Part shown: positions 4,480-64,000 of the stretch, piece by piece
Layout: every line of letters starts with the position of its first letter
Numbering within the stretch: position 1 is the first letter of the stretch
Origin: Leucoraja ocellata
Lineage: Eukaryota
Assembly: GCA_036785375.1 (NCBI GenBank)
Contig: JAWMAR010000016.1
Span: 744,001 to 808,000, forward strand
Direction: 5' to 3'
DNA length: 64,000 nt
Made by a program: the position numbers and the translations under genes
The notes under the pieces: generated by a model
Databases searched by the model: none
What the model saw: only the letters and a program-made list of their open reading frames with translations
Told to the model about the DNA's origin: nothing

Positions 4480-4600
4480 ATCAGTCTGAAGAAAGTTCCT
4501 GACTCAAAACACCACCTATTCATGTCCCTCCAAAGATGCTGCCTGATCCCCTGAGTTACTCCAGCATTTGCTTTTTTTCATAAACCATCATCTGCAGTTC
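4480..4600 (+). repeat. Penelope-derived hammerhead-core repeat (degenerate)
   Basis: cagtctgaagaaag..gatgctgcctga..ctgagttactccagca. Confidence 0.75.
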
Positions 4601-4649
4601 TGTCCCCAAATGAACAATTTCAGTATATGATTACTTTGAATGTCTTAGG

Positions 4650-5365: not shown

Positions 5366-5956
5366 TCCAACATTTTACCCCAATCATAAATCCTGGTGTT
5401 TATTAGCCTTTCCAGCCAACTGCATCACTTTTTCTATTCAATCTCCCATTTTTCTCATTCAGTTACAGCAGAGACGTTTCCAGGTGCTCTCTCTGCCAGA
5501 CTCTTTTTTTCTGCAACATGAAACAAGGTTTATCTATAGCTCTTCCCAAATCTGAAAAAAGTAATTGACGTGATGAATTAACACAATTTCTTTCTCCGTC
5601 TAACTTGCTAAGCTACTCCATCAATTTGCGTTTAGCTATTTTCCTAGCTAGCCGCCAAGTCTTTTTTTTTTTTACAGTTGTTGCTTTCCATTAATATGAA
5701 TGGTGATGTTCACCATGCACAAGGTCCAACCTATTATATGGAGACACAAGATTACAGACTCAAAAGAAAATATCAAATTGCTGGAGGAATCCAGTGGGTC
5801 AGGAAGAGTCTGTGGAGGGAAATGGACAGATGATGTTGCCTCTCACCAGCTGGGTTTCTCCAGCAATTTTATTTTGTTGCTAGACTTCCATAGGTTGTTT
5901 GAACAAATATCATAGTGCAAGTTGTGGAAAATTGCAACAACTTTTCACCAGATATT

Positions 5957-6259: not shown

Positions 6260-6272
6260 GAAGGCTTCATAA

Positions 6273-8351: not shown

Positions 8352-8419
8352 ACGATTTCTGTCGAAGTAAGAGATGAAAACGTTTCCCACACCCCCCCCC
8401 CCCCCAAAATAAAATAAGC

Positions 8420-9266: not shown

Positions 9267-9412
9267 AGAACACCAAAACATACATTTAACACATACCATA
9301 TGACAACAAATAAGGAAGGACAAGTTAGCGAGGCAGCCATTGCTGGCACCATCCGGTGGATTAAACATTAGATTCTGTTTCTTCATTAAGATGTAAAGCA
9401 CCTTGAAATGTT

Positions 9413-9500
9413 CTGAAGAGGGTTCCGAAACGTTGCCTATTTCCTTCGCTCCATAGATGCTGCTTCGCCCGCTGAATTTCTCCAGCATTTTTGTCTACCT
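9413..9500 (+). repeat. Solo Penelope-derived hammerhead-core unit with TSD
   Basis: ctgaagagggttccgaaacgtt... flanked by accttg(g)aaatgttct at 9400-9414 and 9497-9512. Confidence 0.8.
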
Positions 9501-9549
9501 TGGAAATGTTCTACGATCCTTGAATGTATTATAAACTTGCAAGTTCACA

Positions 9550-10460: not shown

Positions 10461-10904
10461 TTGTTGTTTTTTAATATATTCTCAGCATGTTACATTTTCC
10501 TCTGGTGTGACCTAACTATTAAAGGTTCGAGAACAATTATCTGATTTCAACAATCCGTCCCGTTTAAATATTCCTGGAAACAGTCATCAGTGGTCCCTTG
10601 GATTTAACTAATTAGCATTAAATTCTAAAGAAAGCTGTGAGTAATATAGATAATTGAACAAGTTTGGTAATGTTATTCATGTTAGAATTATGTGGTTTGG
10701 TTCCTTAATAAAGCTTGTACCTTGGAGATTGAAAGCCCGCAGTTCTGTACTGATTTGAAGTGGAGACTTATTGTAAAAGTACAATAAAACTCTGGTAATC
10801 TACCATCGGGATGTCGATGGTTCAGCATCCGAATCACGTGATTTCTCACTCCCTTGGCACTCACCAAATCTCTGATGCTCACAGTCCCTCGAAACGTTAA
10901 AAAA

Positions 10905-11112
10905 AAAACACAAAGTGCTGAAGTAATACAGCGGGTCAGGCAGCATCAATGGAGAACATGTAGTTGGGGAGAAAGAATGGGTGACATTTCAGTGCGAGAC
11001 CCTTCGAGAAGAAGGGTCTCGACCCGAAACGTTACCCATTCCTTCTCTCCGGCATTTTGTGGCTATCTTCGGTAGATGTAGGACCAGCATCTGCAGTTCC
11101 TTCCTACACATG
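10905..11112. repeat. Inverted pair of Penelope-derived hammerhead-core units
   Basis: Minus copy (..gagacccttc) abuts plus copy (gaagaagggtctcgacccgaaacgtt..). Confidence 0.75.
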
Positions 11113-11843
11113 TAGTAGCGGAGAGACAATTTGCTTTATTGGTAAGTTATCATTTGTATGAGTTAAAGATATTGGTTCTAAGGTGAGGTATTGCCCTGCC
11201 TTTATTTGTGCTTCCGAAAGAGGTTAGTACCATCCTTGGCAGGAGAAATATATAATTACGTTTTTCTTGGTTGCAGATTCCCTACCTCCACTAAAATCAG
11301 TCTGAAGAAGGATCTGGACCCAATCCGTCACCCATCCATGTTCACCTGACCCACTGAGTTACTCCAGCACCTCATGTTTTTTGGTTGTTAGCCAGTTTCT
11401 TGTATCTCCCTGTAAACTTATCAGGTTCACCAAAAAGTATTCTAATGTTTTATATCTAAAATGAAGTGAATCATTAATTTACTTAGTGCACTTGTTTAGT
11501 TTACTTGATTGGGAAGGGTATTCAGGGGCTGTGGGGAGAAGGCGGGATAATGGGGGTGAGAGGGAAAAGTAGGTCAGCCATTAATGAATGGCAGAGTGGA
11601 CTTGATGGGCTGATTGGCCTAATTCTGCTCCTATAACTTCTGGAACTAATGAATTATAAATGTGTGTTGGGGTATTAACATAATTAACATCCAATCTGGG
11701 AACTCTGCCAGAAGGACACTCACAAATTCCTGAGCTCACCAGATTATCGGAATTTGACTGTAGAGGATTCTGTCTTCATTTTATTGCAATCATTTATGAG
11801 TTCATGTTGCACCAAGCACATTTGCTTCTTAGGCAATATGGCA

Positions 11844-20884: not shown

Positions 20885-21057
20885 GGAAGGAACTGCAGAT
20901 GCTAGTTTACACTGAAGATGGACACAAAATGCTGGTTTTGGATCAATACCTTTCTTCAGACTGAAGGCGGGGTCTCGACCCAAAAGGCCACCCATTCCAT
21001 CTATTCAGAGATGCTGCCTGTCCCGCTGAGTTACACCAGCATTTTGTGTTTATCTAT
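20885..21057. repeat. Penelope-derived hammerhead-core repeat (inverted arrangement)
   Basis: ctttcttcagactgaaggcggggtctcgacccaaaagg... Confidence 0.7.
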
Positions 21058-21079
21058 GTTGCTTTATGCCCAACTTATC

Positions 21080-21485: not shown

Positions 21486-22299
21486 TGGAGGATTCCATCT
21501 TAAACAAAGCTCCGTAATAAGTTGGCTGGCGATATATTTAACAGAAGATGGAAAGACTTAATTCAAGAAACTGCTATGGGTAAAATATAAATAAAATATG
21601 AGTCTATTTGACACATAAATTAATATTTAACCAGAAAACAGTATTGAAAATAGCACAATAACTCATTCAGATCTCTCGCTAGCAAAAATTATCATGTAGT
21701 ATAATTCTTTCTTTTATATATGCACATCAATGTTTGTTTGCAGCAAGTATATTTCATCTTGCATTTTACTTGTTAAGTAACAACAACTGAAGTAGGTCAT
21801 AATAAATATTTTAAGATTTTAATGTATTATTAAACTCCACGTACAATTCAGTCAAGGTGCTGATGAGAGTATTGCACATGAATTAAAACCCAGTGGCAAG
21901 TCGTGTATGTTCTTTGAAATATACATAGTCATAATATGGCTAGTCACATCCTATTTTTTTTTGCTAGATTAATGTTAACAGTGCACAGATATTTAAGATC
22001 TTGTTGGGAATTTATTATAGGATAGTCTACAGATGTTAATAATAAGTACCTTTTTCCCCCAGTACACGTTTCATCCTTATTTGTTGCTGCAGAAGACAGC
22101 TGTATAAAATGAGATAAATCTGACTTTAGAAACAAAGAACTGCAGATGCTGGTTTACAGAAAAATGACACAAAGTGCTGGAGTAACTTAGCAGGTCAGGC
22201 AGCATCGCTGGAGAACATAGATAGATGATGTTTGGGGTTGACACCTTTCTTCAGGGATGAAATCGGGGATGGGACCCGTAGATCAGTAGCATGGGACAG

Positions 22300-22885
22300 C
22301 GAGTCAAGAGGGTTTTATTGTAAGATGTCCCAGATAGAACAATGACAATTCCTACTTGCAGCAGTACAACAGAACATGTAAACATAGTACACTGTAAATA
22401 ATATAGTAAATGGAAAAAAGTTCAGTATATAAATAACACATATATGTGATTGTGTATGTATGTGTGTGCATATAAATATATGGACTGAACATTATTATAT
22501 TGTTTAGAGAATATTCATATTTAGACACAAAATGTTGGAGTAACTCAGCAGGACAGATAGCATCTCTGGAGAGAAGGAATGGGTGAGATTTCAGGTTGAG
22601 CCCTTCAGTCTAGTTTGAAGAAACTGTTCGTGAACCTGGACTTTACCGTTTTCAGGATCCTGTATCTTCTTCCCGATGGCAGCAGTGAAATTAGAGCGTG
22701 GTCAAGTTGGTGTAGGCCCCTGATCATGCTGACTGCCTTTGAGGCACCGGCTCCTGTAGGTCCCTTCGATGGTGGGGAGGCCAGTACAGATGATGGACTG
22801 GGGGCAGTGTTCACAACTTTTTGCAATCTTCTTCACTCCTGGGCGTTCAAGTTGCCAAACCAGGCCACGGTGTAACCAGTCGTGG
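22300..22885 (-). mobile_element. Rex1/Babar LINE 3' end interrupted by a Penelope-derived unit (about 22520-22610)
   Basis: ISLLPSGRRYRILKTVKSRFTNSFF. Confidence 0.75.
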
Positions 22886-23747
22886 AAGGTAACAAAGAAA
22901 ACAAGTGATTTTTCTTTAAGCAGGTACTTGAAGAGTGTGCAGGGCCTGCCTTATCTAGCCTTGGAACATGTGTCAAACTGCCTTTAATGTCGACACGGGT
23001 CACACTGCCATGGTTACTGTATGATTCCATGGTTTCTTATATCTCATATGTGTAAAATAATTTTCCTCCTTAAATTCGACCGTGAACAAAAACATATGAC
23101 TTCACTACCCAAACCACATTTAGTGATCGCCTTTGATAAAAGTCCAACAATAGCAACAAAAAAAAATCACCGCTCTACACAAAAGCATTTCCAAGCAAAT
23201 CAAATGTATTTTTTATATTTCCTTTTGATCTGCCCCAGGGTTTGTGAGAATTATATCTGTATGGTGTCTGAATTTAAACACAGTTTGAATTATGTAACAT
23301 ACTGATATTTACTGAATTTAGACATGTATTCAAATGACAGCATTAAAGCAGGCAGCTTTAAGTTTCCAAATTGTTAAATCAATACAGTTGTAAAGATGAT
23401 GATGCAAAAGATTTTCAGCTTCTGGCAAAAATAAACAGTCTTCCATATGTTATTTTTCCACTATTTGTGTCTGAAAATTAAATTGCCCGATCTACTGAAA
23501 TTAAAGACATTTGTCATCATCAGATAGAATGCATCAGCATAACAGCATAGCCACAAGGTTCTTTCATTCACAAACCAATTATTTTGTTTCTATAACCATC
23601 ATTAAATCTTGGGGTACCGCAAATTTAGCTTATGATAGATGAGGTTATGTTGATATAATTGCTTTATTTCTGTTATCCTGGCAACCAATTACAATGCTAT
23701 TTGAATTGCTTGCAGTTTAGTTTTATAGAAGCAATTTTTAATACAGA

Positions 23748-23943
23748 AGATAGATGCAACGTGCTGGAGTAACTCAGCGTGCTAGGCAGCATCTCTGGAG
23801 AAAAAGGATAGGTGACATTTCATGTCGGGATCCTTCTTCACTCTGAAGAAAGACACAAAGTACTGGAGTAACTTAGCGGGTCAGGCAGCATTTCTGGAGA
23901 AAAAGGATAGGTAACATTTCGGATCGGGACCCTTCTTCAGTCT
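23748..23943 (-). repeat. Tandem dimer of Penelope-derived hammerhead-core units
   Basis: Two head-to-tail copies of about 100 nt, each ending ccttcttca. Confidence 0.8.
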
Positions 23944-23959
23944 GGATGTAACTGTCCGA

Positions 23960-24401: not shown

Positions 24402-25005
24402 GTACAATAAACCCCCGTAACAACAGACCATAGTCGGGGGAGAGGGGGGGGGGGGGGGGGGGGGGGGGGGATGGTGCCCTTATTGCCGATTGTCCTCTAT
24501 AACCAAGTAAGGTGTTATCATTGCATTGGCAGTAGTAGAAACAAATAACTGCAGTTGCTGGTTAATACACAAAGGGACACAGAGTCCTGGAGTAACTCAG
24601 CAGGTCAGGCAGCATCTCTGGATAGGTGTTTCAGTCTGGAACTGGGGCTGGAATCCAGGTGAGTTGACGGCTACGACCAGCTGGTGGCCGGGGGAGAGGC
24701 GAGGATCGACTGAGTCAATTGTCGCAGCCCGCGTGCAGGTGAGGGTTGGTGGTGGTAATGGCGAAGGCAGGCATGGCTTGGAAGCGGCCGGCGAAGCTGT
24801 GTGGGTCAGCGGTGGCTGCAGTAGGATCGGCCTGGAAGCAACGTGAGCCGGGGGTGGTGGGGGCAGCCATTGGTAGGTCCATCCCCTATAAACAACATCC
24901 GGTATAAAGATAGACACAAAGTGCTGGAGTAACTCAGCGGGTCAGGCAGCATTCTGGAGAGAAGGAAAGGGAGACCCTTCTTCTTCAGGTACCAAGAGGT
25001 CTGTT
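24402..25005. mobile_element. Probable Tc1/mariner (Tigger-like) non-autonomous element with nested Penelope units
   Basis: TA followed by caataaacccccgtaacaacagacc resembles a CAGTAAACCCCCG-type TIR; only a partial inverse (ggtctgtta) is present at the right end. Confidence 0.4.
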
Positions 25006-25171
25006 AAAATCACCGCTCTACACAATAAGCCCAGAACCAGAGGGTTTTCCATCTCTGACTCTTATGGACAAAATGAACAAGACTAAACTTCAAAATCAGA
25101 TGTTATAAATGGACAAGTCATGCTTGTGTTGCAGTGAGTGAGAAAACCACCAGCCTGACTTTGTAAATGGA

Positions 25172-25720
25172 GAAGACAGACACAAAAGGCTGGGGTAACA
25201 GCGGGTCAGGCAGGATCTCTGGGGAAAAGGAATAGGTGACGTTTCGGTTGAGACCCTTCTTCAGACTGAAAGTCAGGGGAAAGGGGAATATGAGATATCG
25301 ACGGTACTGAGGAGAAATGAATGGAAGATGTGAAGAAAGCAACATCAATCAAGGAAATGTGAGACACATAATATCCCCTTGTTGGCTGTGGGATAGGTGA
25401 CGACAAGTGTGCAGACAGAGGAACTCAAGAGGACGATGGTAAAACTAGTACCATGACTGGGGTGGGGGAGGGAAGGAGAGAGATGGGATTCGACGATTAC
25501 TTGAAGTTAGAGAAATCAATATTCACACCACTGGGTTGTAAGCTGCACAAGCAAAATATGAGATGCTGCTCCTCCAAATTACATTTGACCTCGCTCTGAC
25601 AGTGGAGGAGACCATGGGGAGAGGTCAGTAAGGAATGGGAATGGGAAGGGGAGTTAAAGTGATTGGCAACTGGGAGATCACGTAGGCCAAGGCAGACTGA
25701 GTGAAGGTGTTCAGCAAAAG
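25172..25720 (-). mobile_element. Penelope-like element 3' fragment (GIY-YIG end, 3' UTR, hammerhead core)
   Basis: Minus strand LHCQSEVKCNLEEQHLIFCLCSLQPSGVNIDFSNFK-stop; core at about 25238-25264. Confidence 0.8.
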
Positions 25721-26056
25721 TAGAGATATGCTATTATTGCACTTCGATCTGGAACACTGATGCTTATGACTTTATTTTATGTATGTTTTCATTGTAATTA
25801 ATGGTGCAGAGATGTGATAAATTGAGGACAGAATGTTGGACTTTGTGCAAATATATGGAAACAAGAAATGGGATCAGCAGAGGGTGATTTGGCTCTCAAG
25901 ACTGCTCTACCATTCAGCAGGATGATGGATGTTCGCCTATCGCAAAAACCATTTCACCATCAAATGCTATGAATCATTTCAAAGTCAGGAATCTATTGAT
26001 CATCGCTTTGAACACAGTCTCTGGCATGAAGAAGTGCAAAGATTCTTCATCTTACT

Positions 26057-26366: not shown

Positions 26367-26669
26367 TTTGAGTGCAGAAAGCTTTTCTCATTTCAGTCCT
26401 CCATGGCACATGTGACTCCTAGTACTAGACACCTTTCTCATTTTGGGAGAAACATTCTCCCCGTAACTACTCTATCAAGCCCTCTGAAAATTTAGGATGT
26501 TTCAGTAAGGTCACTTCTTATTCTTCTAAACGAGAGAACAGAGACCCAATCCGCTAATCCCTCCCTGCCAACCAGACTATGGGTCGTAGCCCAGTGAGCC
26601 TTTGTTAAAACCTTTGTCAATCATTTGCTATCATCAATGCTCTGAGAATAATACACACATATTCATAAC

Positions 26670-26920
26670 AGAGACACAAAGTGCTGGAGTAACTCAGTGA
26701 GTCAGGCAGCATCTCTGGATAACATGGATAGGTGATGCTTTGATTCTGGACTTATTCTGCTTCCAACCCAAAACGTCACCTACTAATCAGTCTTAAGAAG
26801 GATCCCAACCCAAAACTTCACCTATCCATATTCTCCAGGGATGCTGCCTGACCCACCGAGTTACTCCAGCACTTTGTGTCTTTTTTCTGTAAGCCAGCAT
26901 CTGCAGTTCCTTGTTTCCAC
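26670..26920. repeat. Inverted Penelope-derived hammerhead-core units
   Basis: gacacaaagtgctggagtaactc ... gagttactccagcactttgtgtc inverted arms. Confidence 0.8.
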
Positions 26921-27079
26921 ACAAATATTCATTGTTTCTTACGCAAATTTCCAGACTTGCAAGCATTAAAATTTGGATGTTTTTACACTTATAAAAAATG
27001 TAAAACATTGCTTCATAATACTTTACCCCCAAAAACGAGGTTCTCTCTCATCTACTGAAATACCAAGATCTTTTGATTG

Positions 27080-27350
27080 AAAGATAGACAAAAAATGCTG
27101 GAGTAACTCAGCAGGACAGGCAGCATCTCTGGATAGAAGGAATGGGTGACGTTTCAGGTCGAGACTCTTCTTCAGTGAGCCAGAGGAGAGGGAGACAGAG
27201 ATATGGAAGGGTAAGATGTGAAAACGAGACATCATAAGGGATGAAGGTCAAGGAAAATGTAGAATAGTTCATCGTTAGCTAGGGGAAGGTGACAACGAAG
27301 CATACAGAGATAAAATGGAATCAGGAAGACAGCCAGACTAGTCGGAGAAC
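27080..27350 (-). mobile_element. Penelope-like 3' fragment with hammerhead core
   Basis: gggtgacgtttcaggtcgagactcttcttcag plus 3' UTR. Confidence 0.75.
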
Positions 27351-30488: not shown

Positions 30489-32129
30489 TCACATTTCAAT
30501 CTGCTGTGTCCCCACTCTCTTCACATTGCCATATCCATCTGCAAACACCCTCCTCTCCCTGAACTCTTGCCCATTGCGCCCCTTCGCTCTGCCAGTCCCT
30601 TACAGGCAGTTCGCCCTACACGGTCCGCTGGACCATTGTGCATTCTGGTCTGCCTGCTGTATCTCTTCCAGGTCCGCTCCAGTCCCGGCTTGTCTTCCCC
30701 CTTTCAGGTCCGCTTATGGTTCGTCCTGCCGGGTCCGCACCCAGTTAGCTGCTGTCCGGGGTTCTGCTGCCGCCGCCTCCGCGCTTCTCCCCGTGTCCTC
30801 TTTCCACCCTCCCCCAGCCACTTCATGCTTCGCACCTACCTGGTGCACATGGCTCGCCGCTCCCCACCACTTCACGTTGCCCGGCTCCGCTTTCAAACAG
30901 CTTCCTCCGCTCCCCGCTGCGCCCTGAGCACTGTTGCTCGTTCCCTGGTCCCAGTCGTCCCTTCGCCTCCATCACCCTACACGGTCCGCTGGTCCCTCGC
31001 CCTCTCGGGTCCGCTTCAGTTCCACCTTATATTTCTCTTTCAGGTCCGCTGGCGTGCTCTCCTGCATATTCCTTCCAGGTCCGCCTCAACTCCGGGCAGT
31101 TTTCACCTTTCAGGTCTATACCACCCTGTTCGTGCTCCACTTTACCCGGTGCACCTGCACCTCTGTCAGTTCACTTCCAAACACCTCTTTCTTTTCCCTG
31201 TGGACCTTTGGTATTGCCCATTCTTTGTTTAGAATTTAGAGATACAGGGTGGAAACTGGCCCCTCAGCCCACCGAGTCCGCACCAACCAGCGACCATCCC
31301 CTCCTCCTCCAAAACCCACGTGGTCACAGGAAGAACGTACAAACTCTGTACAGACTGCACCAGTAGACAGGATCGAACCCCGGGTCTCTGGCGTGGTTGG
31401 AGGAGAGGATGGACAGGAGGGCATAGTAAAGGTCAAAGCCTGGCAGGTAATAGGCCCACACAGGGGAGGAGAGCTATTTGTTAGGCAGATGGATGAACAA
31501 AGTCTTAGATGAAAAGGCAGAAGCGATATGAAAAAAAATTGAAGAGTTGCAAGTTTTAAAGCTAGAGGAAGGAATGTATGTGGAAGTTGAGGGAGAGGGG
31601 GCGAATAGGTGTGTGTTCAGGTGGAGCACAGGGGAGAAGGTGGTGGGCAAGAAGGAGGAATGTTACATGAGGGAAGAATGAAAGGGGGGGAAGAGGTTAT
31701 GTAGGTTAATTATGTAATTAAAATTGTTTATACTGTTGTTTTGTAATTCCTGTCCTCACCGCCAATAATTTTGCCCATAAAAACACAGTACTATTCTTAA
31801 ATATCAGTATTGAGCGCGATTAAAATCCATATATCTTTCCTAAAATTTGGGAACCAGAACTGTTCAAAGTATTCAATTCCAATCAATGTTATGTGGCCAT
31901 GTTATTCTGAAGTCATAGCAGTTCTATGTCCTTGTACCCTGTGATGTAATGGACTTAATATTATTAGCTTTGTACCTGTCCCAAATATTCTAAAGATCAA
32001 TCTCTTTGAAATTCCATTATTTCTATGGACCTGTATATTGTATTTCAATGTATATGAAAACATTATTTCTATGTTCTCACTACATTTTGCTGCATCCTTT
32101 ATACATCCAAAGTCAACCAGCTCATATTT

Positions 32130-32335
32130 ATACACAAAATCCTGGAGTAGCTCAGCAGACTAGGCACTGTGGAGAGAAGGAATGGGTGATGTTTCGAGTT
32201 GAGACCCTTCTTCAGACTGATGTCAGGGGGGTGGGTGATGTATAGATAAGGAAGTGTAAGGTGTGAAAATAGGACCAAGGGAATGGAGATCAAGGAAAAT
32301 GTAGATTAGATCCTTATTAGTTGGGAGAAGGTATC
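32130..32335 (-). mobile_element. Penelope-like 3' fragment with hammerhead core
   Basis: gggtgatgtttcgagttgagacccttcttcagactgatgtc. Confidence 0.75.
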
Positions 32336-33669
32336 TTGGTTGAAATCTATTTGCCTTAATTTTCCCTTAATTGTGTTGAAGAGTTAAATAACAAGTCATA
32401 AGTATATGAAGTGTGGTAAACAGTTGACATATTCACCAACTGCTGATTGTAAAAGCAACCACACATTGTGTTTGTTTTGTAAATTTGGAAGGTGATGTTG
32501 GCTGACACTTGTAAATGGAAAATACAACTGTGACAATGTTCCATTTCCATCTGGAAACATTTTTGTACTTGGATCTCATGTGCAGCTAACCCGCAGGTGA
32601 AAACACCAGCAGTTTTTAAACAGAGAGGTAGAAACTGAGGTGAATGAACAATAATAGCACAATTTAGTTTTTGTTTTTAGAAAAAAAGGTATGGAAACAG
32701 ACCCTTCGACCCATAGAATCCACACCAGCCATCCATCACCCGTTCACACTAGTTCAATGTTATCCCCCTTTCTCATCCACTCCCTGCACACTAATTTATC
32801 CTACAAACCTGCACATATTTGGGATGTGGAAGGAATCCAGAGCATCAAATGGAAACACAGACAGAAACAGGTAAAACATGCAAACTCTGCACAGACAGTA
32901 CCTGTGGTGAGAACACCACAATAATAAACCTAAACCTGGTTTGTCTAAACAATGAAATTAGAACTCAACGAGCCAAATGCTGAACAATCGAGATTGCTGA
33001 ACAATCTGATAGCTGATTATTGAAATTTTACTATATTTAAAATCACTGCCCTTTTTGATATCTATATTTAACATGGAATTTGATAAGAATGCCTTAATTG
33101 TTTCCTTCTTCAAATTTGGGATGTGGAAGTTGCTGGTTAGGTCAGCATTGTACACTCTCATAGGCCATCAATTTGATTTGTTAATTCTTTTGACACTTAC
33201 TTACATTAGAGGTGATTTAGAATATTAAGCTAGCCCATCAACAGGTCTTTGTGAAGTGGGAAGAAACAGGAGCATCTGTAGATGGCACCTGTAGTCAAGG
33301 TGGGAACTTGCAAACTCCATGCAGTAACACTCAATGACTCTAGGTTTCTGCAACTGTGAGGCTGCAAAACTAATTGGATTCAATTAGCCTTTCAATTACA
33401 GTAATCAATGTCCACTGGGGGAGGTCAACAGTGGATCAAGTCAAGTCAAGTCGAGTCGAGACTCTGAAGAAGGGTCCCAACTCAAAGCGTCACCTGTCCA
33501 TTCTTTCCACAGATACTACCTGACCTGTTGAGTTCCTCCAGCACTTTGTGTTTTATTCAAGTCGGGGTGAGTTTATTGTTATATGCGCCAGTTCAGTGAG
33601 GCACAGGTACAATGAAAATCTTGCCTTCAGTAGCATCACCTGTACATACAGTAGATTCAATCAATAGAA

Positions 33670-37281: not shown

Positions 37282-38052
37282 TTGTAGGAAAGAACTGCCG
37301 ATGCTGGTTTAAATCGAAGATAGACACAAAATGCTGGAGTAACTCAGCAGGACAGGCCACATCTCTGGAGTGAAGGAATGGGTGACGTTTCAAGTTGAGA
37401 CCCTTCTTCAGACTGATGTCAGGGGAGGGGCCAGGACAAAGATAGAATGTAGTCGGAGACAGTAATATCAGTGGGGGAGCTGGGAAGGGGGTGGGGATGG
37501 AGAGAGAAAACAAGGGCTATCTGTACTTGGAGAAGTCAATGTTCATACCACTGGGGTGTAAACTACCCAAGCAAAATATGAGGGGCTGTTCCTCCAATTT
37601 GTGCTGGGCCTCACTCTAACAATGGAGCAGGCCCCAGGACAGATAGGTCAGATTGGGAATGGGAGGGGGAGTTGAAGTGCTGAGCCACCGGGAGATCAGG
37701 TAGGTTAAGATGGATTGAGCAGCGGCCACTCTGATAATGGCCTCCTCCATTGTCAGAGTGAGGCCCACCGCAAATTGGAGGAACAGCACCTCATATTTTG
37801 CTTGGGTAGTTTACACCCCAGCGATATGAACATTGACTACTCTAACTTCAGATAGCCCTTGCTTTCTCTCTCCATCCCCTCCCCCTTCCCAGTTCTCCCA
37901 CTAATCTTACAGTCTCCGACTACATTCTATCTTTGTCCCACCCGCTCCTCTGACATGTCTGAAGAAGGGTCCCGACCCGAAACATCACCCATTCCTTCTC
38001 TCCAGAGATGCTGCCTGTCCCGCTGAGTTACTCCAGCATTTTGTGTCTACCT
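37282..38052. mobile_element. Penelope-like element inserted as an inverted dimer with a 16-bp TSD
   Basis: Left arm minus, right arm plus. GIY-YIG C-terminus LLHCQSEAHRKLEEQHLIFCLGSLHPSDMNIDYSNFR-stop at 37742-37855. TTGAGGTACCA(T/G)ATAT at 37266-81 and 38053-68. Confidence 0.85.
37959..37986 (+). ncRNA. Minimal type I hammerhead ribozyme motif (Penelope 3' UTR)
   Basis: CTGAAGA-A-GGGT-CCCG-ACCC-GAAA-CA-TC about 100 nt after the GIY-YIG stop; the helix III CG has decayed to CA. Confidence 0.6.
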
Positions 38053-39109
38053 TTGAGGTACCAGATATACTGCTTAAGTCAAGATGCTGAGCAAATCCAA
38101 GGCATGTCTTAACGTCTGATGATATCAAACTCTATTCAATCATATGGGACAGGATATTAGTATGGGTAATGTTAAACGGTTAACATGTGATGCATTTCCG
38201 TTAAAAGTATTGATGTTTAGGTATATGATAGCAAGGTAACAAGCCATTGTTAGCTGTTAGCTAGGTGAGAATGAGATGCTGGTGCGACTTGGTGGGGGAG
38301 GTATGGAGAGAGAGCGGGAAGTTAGATAAATCAATATTCATACCACTGGGTTGCAAGCAAAATATGAAATGCTGTTTCTCCAATTTGCATTTAGCCTCAC
38401 TCTGACAATGGAGGAGGCCTAGGACAGAAAGGTCAATGTGGGAATGGGAAGGGGAATACTGTCAACGCAGGCTTGATGGCCACTACTAGAGGTGAATTTC
38501 AGGATATAAAGTGCTATAGCTGTAATTTTCAGATTATTCCTGCCTTTCCCATCACATGAAATCTAATGCATCATCTTTACTTCATGATTTTAACTATCTT
38601 CATTATTATCCACAACTGAGCACTTCATGATCAATATAACAACTTGATATTTTTGATAAGTATAACATGCAAACTGCTTTTGTATTCATTTGGCATTGTC
38701 CATAAGCCAGACCATGAAAGCATAATAAGTAAATAGAGAATAAGCAAAATGATAGAAGTGACACATATCTATTTCATGTCATTTGCCTATCTCATTATGT
38801 TTTTTCGAATGAGTAAAATCAAAACAGAAAATGCTGTAAAAACACAGCTGGTCAGATAACATTTGTGGAAAGAGAAACAGGTAACATTTCAATTCAGTGG
38901 CCTTTCAATTCAACCTGGTATGCTAACTCTTATTTCTTTCTTCAAAGATGCTGCCTGACCTGCTGAGTATTTTTAACATTTTTTGGTTTTAATTTCAGTA
39001 TAACAAAACCTGCAGATTTTTGCCTTTTGACCTGATCATGGATGCAATGAGGTATTTTTAATTCCCTATTTAATTATTGGTGAATTAGAATATTAAACTA
39101 TTTGATTGA

Positions 39110-42490: not shown

Positions 42491-43586
42491 TGGTGGAGGC
42501 AGATACAGTAGTGACATTTCAGAGGCTTTTAGATAGACACATGGATGCGCAGGGAATGGAGGGACTGGATCATGTGCAGGCAGATGAGATTAGTTTGGCT
42601 TGGCATCATGTTTGGCAAGGACATTGGGGGCTGAAGGGCCTGTTCCTCTACTGTAATTTTCTACCTTCTATCATCTTTTGTCAAAGCTTTGGAACGAATA
42701 AAGAAAAACAATTCCAGAGTACATGAGAGGACAGAAAAGGTGGGTTGTTGTCCTGAAAGAAAGTTGCAGAGACTTAATAGAGGTGTTCAATAGTAATTAG
42801 AAGACTTGGATATATGGTGATTGAAAAAAGAACCAGGGGCTGTGGGGGGCAAATTAATTTGGACAAGGAGTTGTTGTGCTGTTAAATCCACTGCCTGGGA
42901 GGGAGATGAAGTAGACCCAGTAGCAACCTTTAAAAGTAAATTGAGCACGAACTTGGAACAGAAAATATTGCTAGTTTATGGGGAGTAAGATTAATTTGAG
43001 CATCTTCTGAATAATTCACACATATATGAATGATAAATGGCCTTCATATGTGTTCTATGATTATCTCATTCTATAAAGAGTGAACTAATTGAAAATATAA
43101 TTTTAACAATTTAGAGAATGAAACCTACACTAAAACATATAATGACTTCCAGATGAAACTACTGACTAATGTCACTTAGGAGCATTTTCCTTCCTACAAC
43201 CATCAGGCTATTAAACACTTCAACATCTAAACACTCTTGACTTGACAATATGTCAGTAATACTAGTTTCTTCGTGATTTTCTATTAACATCTTTGCTACC
43301 AAATTATAAATGTTGATGAGTAGATTATATTTGTGTTTGAATATCCTGGTTAGGGTAGTGATTCAGATCACGTATTGTCAGAGGAAGACATGGTCTAAAT
43401 GGAAACCATTGTTAGAATTTTATGTGATGGAGGTAATTCTAATGTTGGCAGTCGACCTGTTTCCCGAGTGTCAGTTATCCCTATTTCTTTGTATAGGAAT
43501 GAATTGCATATGCTGGTTTACACCAAAGATAGACACAAAAAGCTGGAGTAACTCAGCAGGTCAGGCAGCATCTCTGGAGAAAAGGT

Positions 43587-43614
43587 GACGTTTCGGATCA
43601 AGACCCTTCTTCAG
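43587..43614 (-). ncRNA. Minimal type I hammerhead ribozyme motif, best-preserved core I found
   Basis: Minus strand CUGAAGA-A-GGGU-CUUG-AUCC-GAAA-CG-UC: intact core, helix II with one G-U pair, palindromic ACGU helix III and GUC triplet. Confidence 0.7.
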
Positions 43615-43716
43615 ACTGCAATAGGTGATGTTTCGGGTTGAGACTCTTCTTCAGTCTGACGAAGAGTCTCAACCCAAATGGTCGCCTATTCCATTTCTCC
43701 AGAGATGCCTGACACC

Positions 43717-43949
43717 TTGGGCGTCATTTGCGCGTCATTTATGCGACATCATTTACGACACACGACATGAGCGCCGTAAAGCGCACATGATGCGCGCAAG
43801 GCTGCATTATGCGCGCATGGCGTGTGGTGAGGCGTGGTGATGTAGGCAGTGATGTGCGATCGCGCGCAACGCCCAGGATTTTGGGATTCACAAAATCTTT
43901 GCGCGCCACCTGCGTGCCTCGCAAATGACACCCACGTGGGACAGGCCCT
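43717..43949. mobile_element. CpG-rich PIF/Harbinger MITE inserted at TTA of a Penelope-derived unit
   Basis: Right end cgcaaatgacacccacgtgggacaggccct followed by TTA; left sub-terminal tgggcgtcatttgcg; host resumes ctccagc. Confidence 0.65.
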
Positions 43950-44859
43950 TTACTCCAGCTTTTTGTGTTGATCTTCTCTCTATTCCTTTTCTGCCTAACA
44001 ATGATCACACCAGTGGATTAACGACTATGCTAACACAGCAGATTTTTCCAACTATGCTGATCTGGGCTTTGTGCCAAATAATGTTCAGGCACTAAACTCA
44101 TTTTAAATGGAATACACAAGTTCACTGTTCATTCTCCAGTTCTGCCCACTAATTTTAATGCCATTAATAATTTACTAAATTTTAATGGTGGAATTTTCAT
44201 CAAGCTAGAGAATCCCTGAAATTGTATACCTCTGGAAATTTATTTCTAATTCCATGAAGAAACCTTTTCTCAAATGCTTTTGCTTCCAGAATACAAATTG
44301 TAATGTGAGTTTTATTAACATCAATCATTTTAGTTTAGATAGACACAAAATGCTGGAGTAACTCGGCGGGTTTAGGCTGCATCTCTGGTAAAAAGGAGTT
44401 TCTTCAGACTGGTTTAGTTTAGTTAACTTTAGACATACAGCATAGACACAGGCACAACGGGTCCATGCCGACCATCATTCACCCATTCCTACAAGTTCCA
44501 TGTGTAGGAAGGAACTTGTAGATGCTGGTTTAAACTGCAGATAGACACAAAAAGCTGGAGTAACTCAGCGGGACAGGCAGCATTCCTGGAGAGAAGGAAT
44601 GGGTGACATTTCGGCTCGAGACCCTTCTTCAGCCTCTTGACCCAAATAATGTTATCCATGTTGTTATTGCCCAGCATAGTTTTATCCATTTCTCTGCATG
44701 CAGAACTGAGGCACAAAAATAGATAAAATCAATTAACTACCCAGCACCTTATAAATGCTGAAAAATGTGATGAAACTGACGATGTGTTCACAATAAAAAT
44801 GTAAAATAAGAATTAAAAAGAACTCAGAATAAGTTCATATGTGTGCATGTTTTAAAGCT

Positions 44860-45070
44860 CCCCCCACTCCGCATCCGACCTTCCTGGCCTGGGCCCCCTC
44901 TATGGCCAGAGTGAGTCTCGCCACAAATTGGAGGAGCAGCACCTCATATTTCGCTTGGTGATTTACACCCCAGCGGTACGAACTTCTCCAATTTCAGGTA
45001 GTCCTTGCTTTCTCCCTCCTTCTCCTCCTCTTCCCAGCTCTCCCACAGCCCACTGTCACCGCCTCTTCCT
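44860..45070 (+). mobile_element. Penelope-like GIY-YIG C-terminal fragment
   Basis: QSESRHKLEEQHLIFRL.. Confidence 0.7.
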
Positions 45071-46307: not shown

Positions 46308-46856
46308 TGCAGCTGACAGCACCGTAGTCGGGATCAATTGCAAGAATTCCTTTTTTTATTCCTATCATCCTATGTTTTTTTTACAGTTATGTTTTAGTTA
46401 TTAGTTTTAGTGTTAAAGATACAGGATGGAAACAGGCAACTGTTTGTCTCTAATTGAGACAATGACAATAAATTAGAATACAATACAAAACTGCAGCCCA
46501 TCATGTTCATGCCGACTATCGATCACCTGTCCACACTGGTTCTATGTTATCCCACTTTCTCATCCACTCCCTACACACTAGGGGAAATTTTACAGAGGCA
46601 AAATAACCTGAAAACCTGCACTTCTTTAGGATGTACCCAGTGGAAATTGTATCCTAAATAATTATTTTTAACAAATCCAGATATCAATTTATACTGTTCA
46701 AGAAGGAACTGCAGATGCTGGAAGATCGAAGGTACACAAAAATGCTGGAGAAACTCAGCGGGTGCAGCAGCATCTATGGAGCGAAGGAAATAGGTGACGT
46801 TTCGGGCCTTCTTCCCTTCTTCAGACTTTCTGATCGCTTTTGTGGTAAAGAAATCT

Positions 46857-49399: not shown

Positions 49400-49710
49400 T
49401 CCCCTTCCACCTCTGGCTTCACAAATCTCACGTCTTCCATCTTTATCTCACACTTTTTGTCTCTTCATTTGTCCTTTGTGCAACCATCTACCTATCAACC
49501 CCCGCCCTTCTGCATCCACCCATCACTTACCAGGATTTGTCATGCATCCACCTCTCTTCTAGCATTTTTCCCTCCCCCCATATTCAATCTGAAGAAGGGT
49601 CTCAACCCAAAATAGCACCTATCCATGTTCTCCGGAGATGCTGCCTGACCCGCTGACTTACTCCCACAGTTTGTGTCTTTTTTTTTGTTGACCAGCATCT
49701 GCAGTTCCAT
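49400..49710 (+). mobile_element. Penelope-like 3' UTR with hammerhead core
   Basis: aatctgaagaagggtctcaacccaaaat...ccagcatctgcagttcc. Confidence 0.7.
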
Positions 49711-51035: not shown

Positions 51036-51304
51036 GCATGCTGGGAATGGGTGACGTTCCGGGTGAGGTCCCGACCCGGAACGTCACTCATCCTTTTGTC
51101 TCGAGAGATGTTGTCAGACCCTCTGAATTACTCCGGCACCTTGTGTCTATCTATCTGACAGGGATAATACTAGAATAGGAACTTCACCTCCACTGAATCA
51201 TTTTGTTTATCTATTTAAAGTTGAATCATTGTGCACCAGTTTACAATACAATTATGGCTTCCCCAATTTTAAATGGATTCACTGCATAATATTACTATGC
51301 ATTT

Positions 51305-51776
51305 CATGCAGCATCTGTGGAGAACATGGATAGGCACGATTCAGGTCATTATTCTTCTTCAGACTGAAGAAAGGACTCGACCTGAAGCATTACCTGTCCA
51401 TGTTATCCAGAGATGCTGCCTAACCCACTGAGTTACTGAACCACGTTATGTCTTTTTTTTATAAACCAGCATCTGCAGTTCCTTTTGTCCACAGGGTGCA
51501 TATCATGTTGTAAATTAATGCATTAATTAATATAGATTATAAATCTAATATAGAAACAAGGAACTGCAGATGCTGGTTCACAAAAATAGACACAAAGTGC
51601 TGGAGTAACTCAGCGGGTCAGGCAGCATCACTCAAGAGCATGGATGAGTTGTGTTTCACGTTTGGATCCTTCTTCAGGCTCGTCAGAAGGGTCCTGACCC
51701 GAAACGTCACCTATCCATGTTCTCCAGAGATGTTGCATGACCCCCTTACTCCAGCATTTTGAGTACTTTTTTATTT
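51305..51776. repeat. Two inverted pairs of Penelope-derived units (about 51305-51490 and 51551-51776)
   Basis: ttcttcttcagactgaagaaagg centre in the first pair; ATCTAATA duplicated at 51543-50 and 51777-84 around the second. Confidence 0.75.
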
Positions 51777-52824
51777 ATCTAATACATCAGAAATAATGCC
51801 ATTATATTTCAGCAATGCCTCTATTATTAAGATTTTATAATTTCATGAAAATAGCAATTTATTACATATAAATTGAGGGTGAATTTTAGGAACAGTAATC
51901 TCCTGTTGTCAAACAGCACCTCTCTCATTGCTACACCTCTGCAATGCTGCATAATCTATCAGTGCCATCTGCTGGAATGACAAACGTATTATAACATAAA
52001 AATATTTGTGTTCAAACCTAACAGCATTCCTGGTTTAATGAGCACACAGACCTAAAGCTAATGGGGGAATTGTGAACCTGAGTACTTTTAACCATCATTC
52101 GTCAATTAAGGGGTGGCACAGTGTCGCAGCGATAGAATTTCTGCCTTACAGCGCCAGAGACCCAGGTTCGATCCTCTCTATGGGTGCTCTCTGTACGGAG
52201 TTTGTACGTTCTCCCTGTGACCACATGGGATTTGTCTTGAAACTCTTCTTGATAAACATCAGATGCTCCAGAGTGAGTTTTTGAATAGCTGTTGGTAGAC
52301 AGCTATTTTTTCCAGCATCTGCAGTTTTTTCTTCAACATTTGAATAGCTGTTAAGTGTTTCTGGTTAAAATTGTGACTTTTATTCACTTAAAATATATCA
52401 GTACCAATAATAATCCTGAAGTAATCCTTGTGAAGCATCTTGAGCTTTGGCCCATCAAGTCTACTCTGCCACTGAATCATGGATGAACTATCATCTCCCT
52501 CTCAACCCCATACTCCTGCCTTCTCCCCATAATCCCTGACACCCTTACTAATCAAGTGCTAGTGTATGGGGATCACTGGTCGGCGCAGACTCAGTGTGCC
52601 GAAGAGCCTGTTTCTGCACTGTATCTCTAAACGAAACTAAACTACACTAAGACTAAACTTGAAGGCTGTCTGCAGTCCCTAGGCCTGATGCAGAGATTCT
52701 CCAGCATCCAGAAAGTCAACAGCATGATCTATGTAGCATTTAGTGGATATTTAGGCACAGCAGTGAGGAGAACATTCCACAACACAGTTGAAAATTTAGA
52801 CAGGCAGCAAAGATGGAGTGGAAC

Positions 52825-53190
52825 TTCGAAGACAGACACAAAATGCTGGAGTAACTCTGCGGGCAGCATCTCTGGAGAGAAGGAATGGGTGACGACTTTC
52901 GGGTCAAGACCATTCTTCAGACTGATGTCAGGGGAGAGGGAGATACATAGATAAGGAAGTGTAAGGTGTGAAAATAGGTCAAAGGGAATGAAGTTCAAGG
53001 AACATGTAGAATAGATCATTGTTAGCTGGGAGAAGGTAACAACAAAGCAAACAGAGATAAAATGTAGTCGGGCAGTAAGACTGGTCGGAGAACTGCGAAG
53101 GGGGAGGGATGGAGAGAGAGGGAATTCAAGGCTTACGAAGTTAGATAAGTTAATGTTCATACCGCTGGGATGTATGCTGCCCAAGCAAAA
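52825..53190 (-). mobile_element. Penelope-like 3' fragment
   Basis: LGSIHPSGMNINLSNF, then 3' UTR and degenerate core. Confidence 0.8.
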
Positions 53191-53319
53191 CTTGGTTGGA
53201 ACTTCACCACTTGTAAATACTTTATGTAGCATTTAACATCTACATGCTTTTTGTTAAGAATAATATGTGTAGTGCTTCCATGTGAATCATATAGTCACGT
53301 ACATATGGATTAAATAATA

Positions 53320-54382: not shown

Positions 54383-54499
54383 ATTTCGGATCAAAACTTT
54401 GCATTAGGAATAGGATTGAAGTTGGTCCTGACCAAAAGTGCCAATTATTCCCAGATGCTGCTTGACTGGTTGAAATCCTCCAGCAGATTATGCTTGAGT

Positions 54500-56234: not shown

Positions 56235-57012
56235 TTGTCTCCATTCTCATATTCATGTGCCTGTCCAAATATCTCTCAAATGTCACTATGGTGTCTGCTT
56301 CAACCACCACCCATCGGCAGCACAATCCAAGCACTCACCATCCTCTGTGCAAAAATCATGCCCCTTTTCACACTGAGAGTGGTGAATCTCTGGAAGTCTC
56401 TGCCACAGAGGGTAGTTGAGGCCAGTTCATTGGCTATGTTTAAGAGGGAGTTAGATGTGGCCCTTGTGGCTAAAGGGATCAGGGGGGTATAGAGAGAAGG
56501 CAGGTACAGGATACTGAGTTGGATGATCAGCCATGATCATATTGAATGGCGGTGCAGGCTCGAAGGGCCGAATGGCCTACTCCTGCACCTATTTTCTATG
56601 TTGCTATGTTTATCTCCTTTAAAAATGTGCCCCTCCCACTTTAAAGCTGTGCCCTCTAGTTTTTTACTTTTGCACCCTGGGGAAAAAGGTCTGACATTCT
56701 ACCCTTATTATTGAAGAAGAAGGGTTTAGACCCGAAACGTTGCCTATTTCCTTCGCTCCATAGATGCTGTTGCACCCGCTGAGTTTTTCCATCACTTTTG
56801 TCTACCTTCTACCCTTATTATGTCTCTCGTTAGTTTATATACTTACAACAGATCTCCCATCAACTTTAGAAGCTTTAGAGAAAACAATCCAAGTTTGTCC
56901 AAACTCTTCAGATAGACAATACCCTATGAACCAGGGCGCATTCTGGTGAACCACTTCTACACCCTCTCCAAAGACTTCATATACCTCCTGTAATGGGGCA
57001 ATCAGAACTGAA
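56235..57012. mobile_element. Composite CR1 fragments (minus-strand host with a plus-strand CR1 3' end at about 56366-56610)
   Basis: RVVNLWKSLPQRVVEASSLAMFKRELD plus 3' UTR lies inside an opposite-strand CR1. Confidence 0.75.
56712..56806 (+). repeat. 95-nt solo Penelope-derived hammerhead-core unit with a perfect 15-bp TSD
   Basis: TTCTACCCTTATTAT at 56697-56711 and 56807-56821. Confidence 0.85.
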
Positions 57013-57164
57013 CACCGTCTGAAGAAGTTTTCTGACCCGAAATGTCACCTACTCCTTCTCTCCAGAGATGCTGCCTGACCTGCTGAAATACTCCAGCATT
57101 TTGTGTCTATCTACAATACTTCGTTGAATTCATTATCTACAATACTTTCGCTGAATACATTCGC

Positions 57165-57640
57165 TCAGTCTGCCTGGTCCTACCTGATCTCCCAGTTGTT
57201 AAACACTTTAATTCCCCTTCCCATTCGCACACTGACCTTTCGGTCCTCGGCCTCCTCCATTGTCAGAGTGAGGCTAAACGCAAATTGGAGGAACAGCACC
57301 TCATATTTCGCTTGGGCAGCTTACACCCCAGAGGTATGATTATTGATTTCTCTAACCAAGTAATACCTGCATTCCCTCTCTTTCCACCCCTCCTCCACCC
57401 AAGTATTTTGTTCACACCTAGCTACAGCTAACAATGGCCTGTTTCCATTATCATTGTTACTTTTTTGCATATCTTCATTCATTGTTCTATATCTCTCTGC
57501 ATCATCATCTTCACCTCTCGTTCCCCTTTCCCGTGACTTTCAGTCTGAAGAAGGGTCTCGACCTGAAACTTCACCCATTCCTTCTCTCCAGAGATGTTGC
57601 CTGTTCTGCTGAGTTACTCCAGCATTTTGTGTCTACAATA
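57165..57640 (+). mobile_element. Penelope-like 3' fragment in the gpr37l1 intron
   Basis: LLHCQSEAKRKLEEQHLIFRLGSLHP; core ctgaagaagggtctcgacctgaaacttc at 57545-57572. Confidence 0.82.
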
Positions 57641-58011
57641 CTTCAAATGCAACCTAATCAAAGTTTTATAAAGCTACAACATGACCTATACATTGCCTCA
57701 ACTGGTGAAGGCAAGTATACCATAAACTCTCTTTATCATTTTTTCTTGCTGCATGCTATTTGTCTCTTCAGAACCTTTCCCTCATCCATTACATGAGTAT
57801 GCAACAAGTGGCTGTCACGCAGGCATCAATGGTGACCACATCACTAGAGGGCATAGAGAGTTCAGTAGCACCCAACATCATATCTACCCAGGATTCACAA
57901 CGAGCCATGCGTTTAGCTATACCTCAGAGGAACTATGTCCCCATAGATAACTTCCACAACAGAATAGTCCTTCACAACCTAGACTTTCTAAACGTAAAGT
58001 AAACATTCACA

Positions 58012-62819: not shown

Positions 62820-62950
62820 TTCTTCCCTCCAGTTCCCTTCCCTATACTTTCAGTCTGAAGAAGGGTCCAGATGCGAGATGTCACCAATCCTTTTTCTCCA
62901 GAGATGCTGCCTGACCTGCTGAGTTACTCCAGCACTTTTATATCTATCCT
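62820..62950 (+). repeat. Penelope-derived unit with degenerate core
   Basis: cagtctgaagaagggtcc...gatgctgcctgacctgctgagttactccagc. Confidence 0.75.
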
Positions 62951-63029
62951 AGACGATATTGTTTTGCAATAATCGTGCAAGAAATTTAACTTCTACAAAG
63001 CCAAAATTGCACATTTTGTTTAGTTTGAG

Positions 63030-63420: not shown

Positions 63421-63837
63421 ACAGCTTCAAAATTTAACGTTAGATTTAAGCAAGTGAAAATGCATTGACTATTGCTGATTAGAAGAGCACATTTCTATTC
63501 AACATTTATGCAAGTGAATATTACTTGCAGCAAAGCTATTCTGAATGGGTCTAAGAATTTGGCTGCTTTGAGGATGCAGTAATTGTCATTAATTAAAAGC
63601 TGAGAACACAGACAAGAATGTTTCTAGTCTACATTAATTTGGCCAGTCCTGGTCCTCGTGTTGGCTGAGGAACTTTAATTGTTCGGTAATCTTGGATGAA
63701 AAACAGAAGAATGTTGTAGCCCCTGTATAGTGCGTGTTTACATGTTAGAACAGAACTGGTTCAACTTAGGTCTGTACACATATATGGATAAGATTCAGCT
63801 CTGGGTGCTGTCTGAAGACAACATCCAACTACAAATA

Positions 63838-64000
63838 GAAGATAGACATACAATACTGGAGAAACACAGTGGGACAGGCAGCATCACTGGAGAAAAGGAA
63901 TGGGCGATGATTTGGGTGTAGTAGGGTCTCGAACCGAAATGTCACCCATTCCTTCTCTCCAGAGATGCTGCCTGTCCCGTGCCATTATTCCAGCATTTTG
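63838..64000. repeat. Inverted pair of Penelope-derived units, running off the window
   Basis: gggacaggcagcatc..ggagaa / ttctctccagagatgctgcctgtccc. Confidence 0.75.

Follow-up and report, generated by a model that had tools for sequence, protein, structure and literature searches.

Probable terminal-repeat pieces of Neptune-like Penelope retroelements with a minimal hammerhead motif, densely scattered in a skate genome

Introduction

The general picture of Penelope-like elements (PLEs) is given in the review PMC6765202. Minimal hammerhead ribozymes in the terminal repeats (pLTRs) of metazoan PLEs were described in 2014 (Cervera & De la Pena, PMC4209133), and their reported traits are a CUGANGAH box, a nucleotide between A9 and helix II, a G10.1-C11.1 pair and a palindromic helix III. 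Helix I has precedents of 2 bp in Culex, Drosophila virilis and Oikopleura (Fig. S3 of that study). The same work reports no cleavage of monomers and low cleavage of dimers, and describes the PLE motifs as mostly single and probably tied to truncated PLEs. For the class as a whole it is settled that minimal hammerheads occur in the terminal repeats of PLEs and that most of the copies are dead and scattered. Table S1 and Fig. S3 of the 2014 survey include no cartilaginous fish.

Insertion by PLEs is reported to leave inverted partners, junction palindromes, a one-sided tail and solo pLTRs, the pLTR holding an initiator-like site (PMC8557442, PMC3846280), and the Penelope promoter is described as internal (PMC2377424). 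The mechanism has been followed in vitro for the Poseidon element of Anolis carolinensis, PAc (Frangieh et al. 2024, PMC11167929). Its protein is reported to nick and extend both DNA strands, and reverse transcription to start inside the RNA, at two sites some 110-150 nt in, which define the tail. The RNA used is uncut, cleavage not being needed for insertion in vitro, and the hammerhead is silent alone and cleaves only when its protein is present.

Non-LTR retrozymes are another group of hammerhead-bearing, pLTR-related sequences (PMC7229834; Li et al. 2026, bioRxiv 10.64898/2026.07.22.740005). The latter survey covered one chondrichthyan and found retrozymes in it, and its supplementary tables may contain the family treated below. 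A whale-shark preprint, in the portion considered here, mentions PLE expansion without ribozymes, the words Penelope and ribozyme are absent from a batoid genome preprint, and a literature search, with Dfam and Repbase outside its scope, found no paper on a skate PLE hammerhead. Here we analyse a window of 64,000 nt, the whole stretch at positions 744,001 to 808,000 of contig JAWMAR010000016.1 of Leucoraja ocellata, in which a sequence-only reading had flagged a hammerhead core within an abundant short repeat.

Results

Abundance of the hammerhead unit

The 28 flagged bases (43587-43614) do form a hammerhead motif, on the minus strand and with one mismatch to the pattern originally proposed. 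Searching the 64-kb window with that pattern and up to 3 mismatches gave 15 matches, against a mean of 0.00 in 100 shuffles. A profile of the unit, built from the window's own copies, yielded 57 hits at E<=1, 45 of them at E<1e-3, and none in the reversed window used as control. Our own rendering of the published strict descriptor found 4 places, all in this unit family (4 of the 45 hits pass), and a mean of 0.01 in 100 Markov resamples. The shuffle, reversed-window and resample controls rule out a chance motif.

The 45 hits group into 34 clusters that cover 4,255 nt (6.6% of the window), about one cluster per 1.9 kb, which bears out the earlier estimate of one unit per 2 kb. Strands are even (22 plus, 23 minus), and divergence from one single majority sequence has a median of 15% (range 4-30%). 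The loop variants noted earlier near 11018, 37971, 51693 and 56726 were all found where they had been placed, the CUGA box being missing in three of these four example copies (11006, 51681 and 56714). The flagged locus comprises the following features.

43587..43614, minus strand: minimal hammerhead core, C3 to C17, found by pattern and strict descriptor; one of the 2 complete motifs among 32 copies
43511..43618, minus strand: whole unit around the flagged core, with a partial tail (profile)
43620..43658, minus strand: short upstream partial-tandem copy, hammerhead only (profile)
43652..43976, plus strand: head-to-head partner, with overlap at a palindromic junction (segments 43652-43713 and 43950-43976)

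The flagged core has a 4-bp helix II with one G-U and a C-G helix III, and its predicted cut lies between 43587 and 43586. The head-to-head partner is split by an unrelated CpG-rich insert with inverted repeats (43714-43949). A similar element at ~54060-54365, with 58-nt inverted arms near 54080-54347, lies between TAA/TTA-like triplets, and its outer ends resemble those of the first insert. We take the two to suggest a PIF/Harbinger-type MITE family.

Structure and decay of the motif

The majority state at all 11 core positions is that of a hammerhead (CUGANGA, GAAA and an NUH site), and 14 of the 32 copies that cover the core retain all 11 bases. Two of the 32, the flagged unit (43618, minus) and the unit at 37415 (minus), also have a 4-bp helix II, the C-G palindrome and both pairs of helix I. 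An A stands between A9 and position 10.1 in 35 of 36 copies; this extra base, first seen as a caveat, is instead a published conserved trait of minimal PLE hammerheads. The 10.1-11.1 pair is G-C in 21 and G-U in 7 of 32 copies. At the palindromic positions 15.2-16.2, CG is the commonest state (13/32), and TG (7) and CA (7) are products of CpG decay. Helix I, put at 2-4 bp in the sequence-only reading, is indeed short, at just 2 bp (U-A and G-C) with A-C at the third position. Overall the analysis supports the proposed minimal type I PLE hammerhead in a terminal repeat, and its palindromic C-G helix III would be suited to folding as a dimer.

The GGGT/ACCC stem of helix II had been described as largely kept. 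It is not specially kept: 78.6% of its cells pair, and 492 of 500 shuffles pair equally well over the whole structure. Searched against Rfam at E<=1, the entire window gave 6 matches, all below gathering scores and none of them a hammerhead, which we read as a model mismatch and not as counter-evidence.

Excess conservation of the core and covariation, both raised in the sequence-only reading, were looked for among the copies, and neither appeared. Conservation is similar in core and flank (291/307 versus 1078/1170, p=0.14), and CpGs of the structure are kept as often as other CpGs (92/128 versus 83/118, p=0.89), the motif's two CpGs decaying to TG and CA. Among 26 aligned copies, which are related, decaying copies of one window, a single cell showed two-sided change, and 483 of 500 shuffles reached the covariation score; metagenome scans for related repeats, as independent families, found 0. 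Selection on the genomic copies was considered and rejected, there being no core excess, like decay of CpGs and no covariation. To judge from their sequences, the units are neutrally decaying insertions that change mainly by CpG loss in the core, nearly all of them presumably catalytically dead. Because covariation is absent, it is pattern and position that carry the fold. Seeking a refutation in covariation among genomic copies is nevertheless misplaced, because inserts decay neutrally whatever the catalysis of the source RNA, on which their decay does not bear.

Predicted lowest-energy folds pair the core with a downstream pyrimidine tract instead of forming the hammerhead. In them, unit positions 5-15 (the CUGA box and the 5' strand of helix II) pair with 38-51; this pairing is found in the majority sequence, and of 4 whole copies, 2 show it and a third does so in part. 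None of the 6 z-scores computed for RNA folding was significant. The pairing of CUGA box and pyrimidine tract might possibly be a built-in off state, although it is not significant against shuffles.

By eye, units 9412, 46827 and 56716 make up a distinct small variant group with another loop and other downstream bases. In two of them the cleavage position is U and the next base G, which keeps a wobble pair in helix I. All three are short, two have clear target duplications, and the window has no long copy of the group.

Relationship to a Penelope-like element

Eight fragments in the window encode the C-terminus of one protein family (GIY-YIG), and five of them are continuous with a unit. These long copies and the fragments without a unit are as follows.

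57141..57642, plus strand: longest clean copy, with GIY-YIG C-terminal fragment 57150-57371, 3' UTR and unit 57541-57642; 13-bp target duplication
37304..37721, minus strand: long copy with GIY-YIG fragment, UTR and unit 37304-37415 with tail; left arm of an inverted pair
37721..38066, plus strand: right arm of the inverted pair, unit 37957-38066, no tail; reference for read mapping
25167..25722, minus strand: long copy, GIY-YIG fragment to unit 25167-25268
52819..53209, minus strand: long copy, last GIY-YIG codons to unit 52819-52924
3490..3708, minus strand: GIY-YIG C-terminal fragment without a unit
38233..38458, minus strand: GIY-YIG C-terminal fragment plus partial UTR; no unit
44850..45033, plus strand: GIY-YIG C-terminal fragment without a unit

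The copy at 37304..37721 (minus) is the second of the two with a complete motif. From the stop of the reading frame to C3 the five linked copies measure 103, 105, 181, 212 and 232 nt; the sequence-only reading had placed the unit about 100-200 nt after a GIY-YIG C-terminus, and the placement holds while the distance has to be widened to 103-232 nt (n=5). Further units retain shorter pieces of UTR, so that the copies form a nested series of 5' truncations.

A 74-aa fragment had 16 hits among 34 candidates. The best were skate proteins at 64-74% identity, with Leucoraja erinacea proteins at 74% and 64% and further hits in Amblyraja and Rhinoraja. Relatives of the window fragment have a CX4CX2C linker followed by the GIY-YIG motif; a linker of the general form CX2-5CxxC is present in P0002, P0004, P0006, P0027 and P0040, and the window's fragments begin downstream of its position. 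Pfam placed GIY-YIG in 3 of 7 relatives at E ~1e-3, below its cut-off, and recognised no domain in the window's own 93-aa fragment, the GIY-YIG assignment coming via the relatives. A search with P0004 gave 8,111 relatives; of the 5 scanned, 4 (752-924 aa) have RVT_1 and then GIY-YIG. The window fragment and the C-terminus of P0027 align with an E-value of 8e-10. Within the window we found no reverse transcriptase of this Penelope-like family and no full-length pLTR-ORF-pLTR element. The parent of the unit is very probably an endonuclease-bearing PLE, the order from reverse transcriptase to GIY-YIG being taken from the relatives and not from the window. The CX2-5CxxC linker, likewise a feature of the relatives on which the clade assignment is based, points to Neptune. 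We consider it very probable that the units are pLTR pieces of Neptune-like Penelope retroelements in the skate genome.

Annotated skate isoforms of SAC2-like, myocardin and DCC (P0011, P0013 and P0014) contain a piece of this PLE endonuclease, by either exonisation or annotation error.

Arrangement of the insertions

With a relaxed threshold the window has 14 adjacent pairs of units: 10 head-to-head, 3 tandem and 1 tail-to-tail. Besides those given above, the pairs are listed here, with the sole full dimer.

20896..21062, both strands: head-to-head pair joined at a palindrome; the minus arm has an internal deletion and a tail
51304..51479, both strands: head-to-head pair with palindromic junction
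51564..51784, both strands: head-to-head pair
10896..11051, both strands: head-to-head pair
26653..26907, both strands: head-to-head pair
63823..64000, both strands: head-to-head pair, cut by the window end
5765..5869, both strands: old degraded head-to-head pair
38815..39014, both strands: old degraded head-to-head pair
23736..23944, minus strand: sole full tandem dimer, period ~100 nt, both cores changed

In the strict set, 8 pairs are head-to-head and 0 tail-to-tail, against a mean of 1.0 and a maximum of 7 in 5000 random placements. In three pairs the arms overlap at a small palindrome that spans C3. A tail of ~30 nt is present on exactly one arm in 7 of the 10 head-to-head pairs and on both arms in 0; the three pairs outside the one-arm class comprise two old ones and one truncated by the end of the window. 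The arms of a pair resemble each other more than random pairs do (median identity 0.82 versus 0.74, p=0.006). The remaining units are the following.

56716..56811, plus strand: solo short unit, 15-bp target duplication
9412..9508, plus strand: solo short unit, target duplication of at least 10 bp
44326..44411, minus strand: solo unit, core deleted, 10-bp duplication
4482..4597, plus strand: unit with short UTR and tail
5598..5642, plus strand: old fragment (profile)
11298..11399, plus strand: unit with short UTR
22139..22254, minus strand: solo unit with tail
22513..22609, minus strand: solo unit (profile)
24549..24633, minus strand: unit without core, with tail
24899..24988, minus strand: solo unit, internal deletion (profile)
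27064..27176, minus strand: unit with ~150 nt of UTR upstream
32110..32219, minus strand: unit with ~110 nt of UTR upstream
33463..33572, plus strand: solo unit (profile)
44523..44635, minus strand: solo unit with tail
46708..46827, minus strand: solo unit with tail; variant helix II, still passes the descriptor
49586..49704, plus strand: unit with second-subfamily UTR and tail
51066..51161, plus strand: unit without CUGA box (profile)
54424..54498, plus strand: old degraded unit (profile)
57017..57127, plus strand: solo unit just upstream of long copy 57141 (profile)
62851..62952, plus strand: unit with short UTR

Clear target duplications flank the unit at 56716 (15 bp), the copy at 57141-57635 (13), the whole inverted pair 37304-38066 (11), the unit at 9412 (10) and that at 44399, within 44326..44411 (10). 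The control for solo copies reached at most 9 bp in 132, whereas that for pairs is inflated by element sequence. Of the copies tested, the 12 solos gave 2 clear duplications, 6 further copies gave 2 and the 10 pairs gave 1; the others had none above control. The window copies show the insertion signature of PLEs: head-to-head pairs, a tail on one arm and some duplications of 10-15 bp.

Start of the short copies

Among the 30 copies anchored at C3, 18 lack upstream UTR, the split between long and short being made by eye, and 6 of these 18 have a palindromic junction. In the other 12, identity to the element is 8/12 at positions -3 and -2 and 4/12 at -4. Most copies start a few bases before the core and not at the cleavage site, and thus keep the uncut ribozyme. 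We reject copies cut at the ribozyme site, since the ends do not lie there.

The same 5' edge is seen in sequences mapped on 37730-38075 at 85% identity, a threshold at which divergent UTRs are lost. They came from one poly(A) run of a related organism (X24, ~6% of the run) and three contig sets, of which together 19,415 of 7,335,232 records fit the reference. Peak depth of the unit exceeds that of the GIY-YIG end ~15-fold in poly(A) reads (15,486 versus 1,027) and ~10-fold in two DNA contig sets; such depths do not give copy numbers, and divergence of the UTR among subfamilies inflates the jump. At 37957, inverted and go-back joints were seen repeatedly across several runs, their 3' side being variable, and the 15 listed of 563 joints include no forward skip. 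Read ends did not pile up in one fragmented poly(A) library of a related organism, which is a weak test of cleavage. Reads over the unit have no strand preference (7588 versus 7898). On 37730-37945 (GIY-YIG/UTR), the first-mate strand ratio of poly(A) reads is ~1.7:1 to 3:1 where that of the unit is 1:1; this bias may come from genuine transcripts of the element, or else host RNAs may be depleted of long copies in sense orientation.

The bases just before C3 fit the metazoan initiator consensus. They also resemble a 3' splice acceptor. Splicing to the -3 edge is possible, as in D. virilis, where the intron is reported to end at the corresponding place (PMC4209133, PMC2377424); no upstream exon shared among the short copies was seen.

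Other features of the window

Two exons of a class A GPCR (7tm_1) lie at 55073-55924 (plus) and 61015-61842 (plus); the nearest solved structures are endothelin receptors, and we take the gene to resemble GPR37L1. The three units in its intron (56716, 57017 and 57541) are all in the gene's sense orientation, which fits inactive copies (n=3). A degraded LINE reverse transcriptase (RVT_1, E 8e-23) occupies 47021-48242 (minus), and C-terminal fragments resembling it are found at ~12441-13045 and 35556-36119.

Discussion

Our results suggest a way in which the different kinds of copy could arise from one RNA. The element RNA would start with the initiator-like sequence that lies 3 nt before C3. 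From either internal priming site a cDNA of 100-130 nt would then run off the 5' end of the RNA, giving the abundant short class, and priming in the downstream repeat would give the long, 5'-truncated class, which is rarer. If both strands of a single break primed synthesis and the products were joined via the small 5' palindrome, head-to-head pairs with a tail on one arm would result, and after insertion the copies would decay neutrally, mainly by loss of CpG in the core. We rate the chances as even that the short copies are indeed cDNAs reaching from an internal priming site to the 5' end of the RNA and that the pairs reflect priming on both sides of a break. The motif would have mattered, if at all, in the RNA of the source element.

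The main rival to an edge set by the RNA start keeps the same PLE origin and attributes the 5' edge to stalling or template switching of the reverse transcriptase at the palindrome or core, or to antisense self-priming. We regard it as a possible, if somewhat doubtful, explanation. The palindromic junction of 6 of 18 short copies would follow from it, as would the likeness of pair arms (0.82 versus 0.74 for random pairs, p=0.006), and palindromic head-to-head junctions have been read as self-priming on an antisense template (PMC3846280). Yet solo copies without a palindrome share the same edge, and the asymmetry of tails (one arm in 7 of 10 pairs, both in 0) fits two priming sites better than a fold-back. 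A separate matter is whether the hammerhead resemblance is vestigial, the skate source elements being already devoid of catalysis, which we hold to be unlikely. The 2-bp helix I, the absence of covariation and the sequestered core of the predicted folds agree with it, and 8 of 9 Xenopus dimers tested are reported not to cleave (bioRxiv 10.64898/2026.07.22.740005); against it stand the 11 core positions, G10.1-C11.1 and the C-G palindrome, all in the majority state, and the Anolis motif that is silent alone yet cleaves with its protein (PMC11167929).

The sequence-only reading had seen in the units a separate SINE-like or retrozyme-like family. The analysis does not support this: the units grade into GIY-YIG copies, showed no tRNA head or Pol III box, lie scattered or head to head and not in tandem arrays, and carry a minimal motif. 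A tRNA- or 7SL-type SINE was rejected, ARAGORN finding 0 genes and simple A/B box patterns being absent from the unit profile. A subtler version takes the short units for a self-propagating, PLE-dependent, non-autonomous mini-element of 100-130 nt, SINE-like in having an internal promoter and being re-copied in trans. It would explain why units outnumber GIY-YIG ends ~10-fold in DNA contigs and 15-fold in RNA reads, why the 5' edge is fixed and why some units have their own target duplications, and it can draw on the internal promoter of Penelope (PMC2377424) and on a rotifer in which pLTRs are reported to suffice for mobilisation in trans (PMC3846280). Were it true, promoter, hammerhead and the site for binding and priming of the reverse transcriptase would be united in one piece starting at its own initiator, a Pol II, ribozyme-headed analogue of a SINE that would also show naturally at which points PLE reverse transcription begins and ends in vivo; if the window were also typical, an extrapolation would put copies on the order of a million per skate genome. 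We nevertheless find it improbable, given that UTR-bearing copies occur in each of the window's two large sequence groups, which therefore trace to long elements, that no tRNA head or Pol III box was found, and that read strands are 1:1, as would be expected, were the library stranded, of units carried passively in host transcripts. Least probable is a non-LTR retrozyme, propagated by tandem self-cleavage, circularisation and rolling-circle reverse transcription. The dimer at 23736-23944, the recurrent go-back joints of 87-96 nt in DNA contigs and the pLTR-derived retrozymes reported from other hosts, one chondrichthyan included (bioRxiv 10.64898/2026.07.22.740005), speak for it, but copies end away from the cleavage site, the 3' side of the tandem joint varies from 38043 to 38053, tandems are just 3 of 14 adjacent pairs, and in this window's dimer one unit has lost C3 and the other pair 1 of helix I. 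Retrozymes moreover are described with canonical hammerheads in repeats of 150-450 nt (PMC7229834) and, in the chondrichthyan, with an average of 363 bp (bioRxiv 10.64898/2026.07.22.740005), as against the minimal motif with its 2-bp helix I found here.

Returning to pLTR pieces of a Neptune-like PLE, the likeness to the minimal hammerheads of PMC4209133 extends to the core boxes, the nucleotide after A9, G10.1-C11.1, the palindromic 15.2-16.2 and the short helix I, and also to the position in the pLTR and the mostly solitary, dispersed copies tied to truncated PLEs. Local density (34 clusters in 64 kb) is far above the 4,000-9,000 descriptor hits per genome given there for coelacanth and Xenopus, although that count was of intact motifs alone, and here 4 of 45 hits pass the strict descriptor. 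With Neptune as described by Craig et al. 2021 (PMC8557442) the family shares a C-terminal GIY-YIG, a CX2-5CxxC linker (here in the relatives), an inverted truncated partner and an optional tail of 30-40 bp on one end; the window holds at most the last 74 codons. Nematis also has the linker finger and is set apart by host range alone.

PAc belongs to another clade, and its ORF starts in stem II, whereas the unit has no comparable start of a long ORF. It is otherwise alike in placing the hammerhead ~100-150 nt upstream of two 3' ends that lie ~30 nt apart, in having no read ends piled at the cleavage site and in retaining the uncut motif; the parts of PMC11167929 considered here make no mention of a dominant short class. 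Non-LTR retrozymes resemble the units in being non-coding, hammerhead-bearing, pLTR-related and present as many monomers (PMC7229834; bioRxiv 10.64898/2026.07.22.740005). They differ in their tandem units, each with an intact hammerhead (canonical in PMC7229834), and in their circular RNAs, whereas the single dimer here has changed cores and most pairs are inverted.

Nothing points to a host function of the copies. What the window adds is a skate family that the 2014 survey, in the table and figure cited above, lacks, at a very high local density. It also adds a sharp 5' edge and one-sided tails which, in a vertebrate genome, fit the two-site internal priming seen in vitro for Anolis. If the edge is the start of the RNA, these copies would let the insertion mechanism of PLEs be read genome-wide at large scale.
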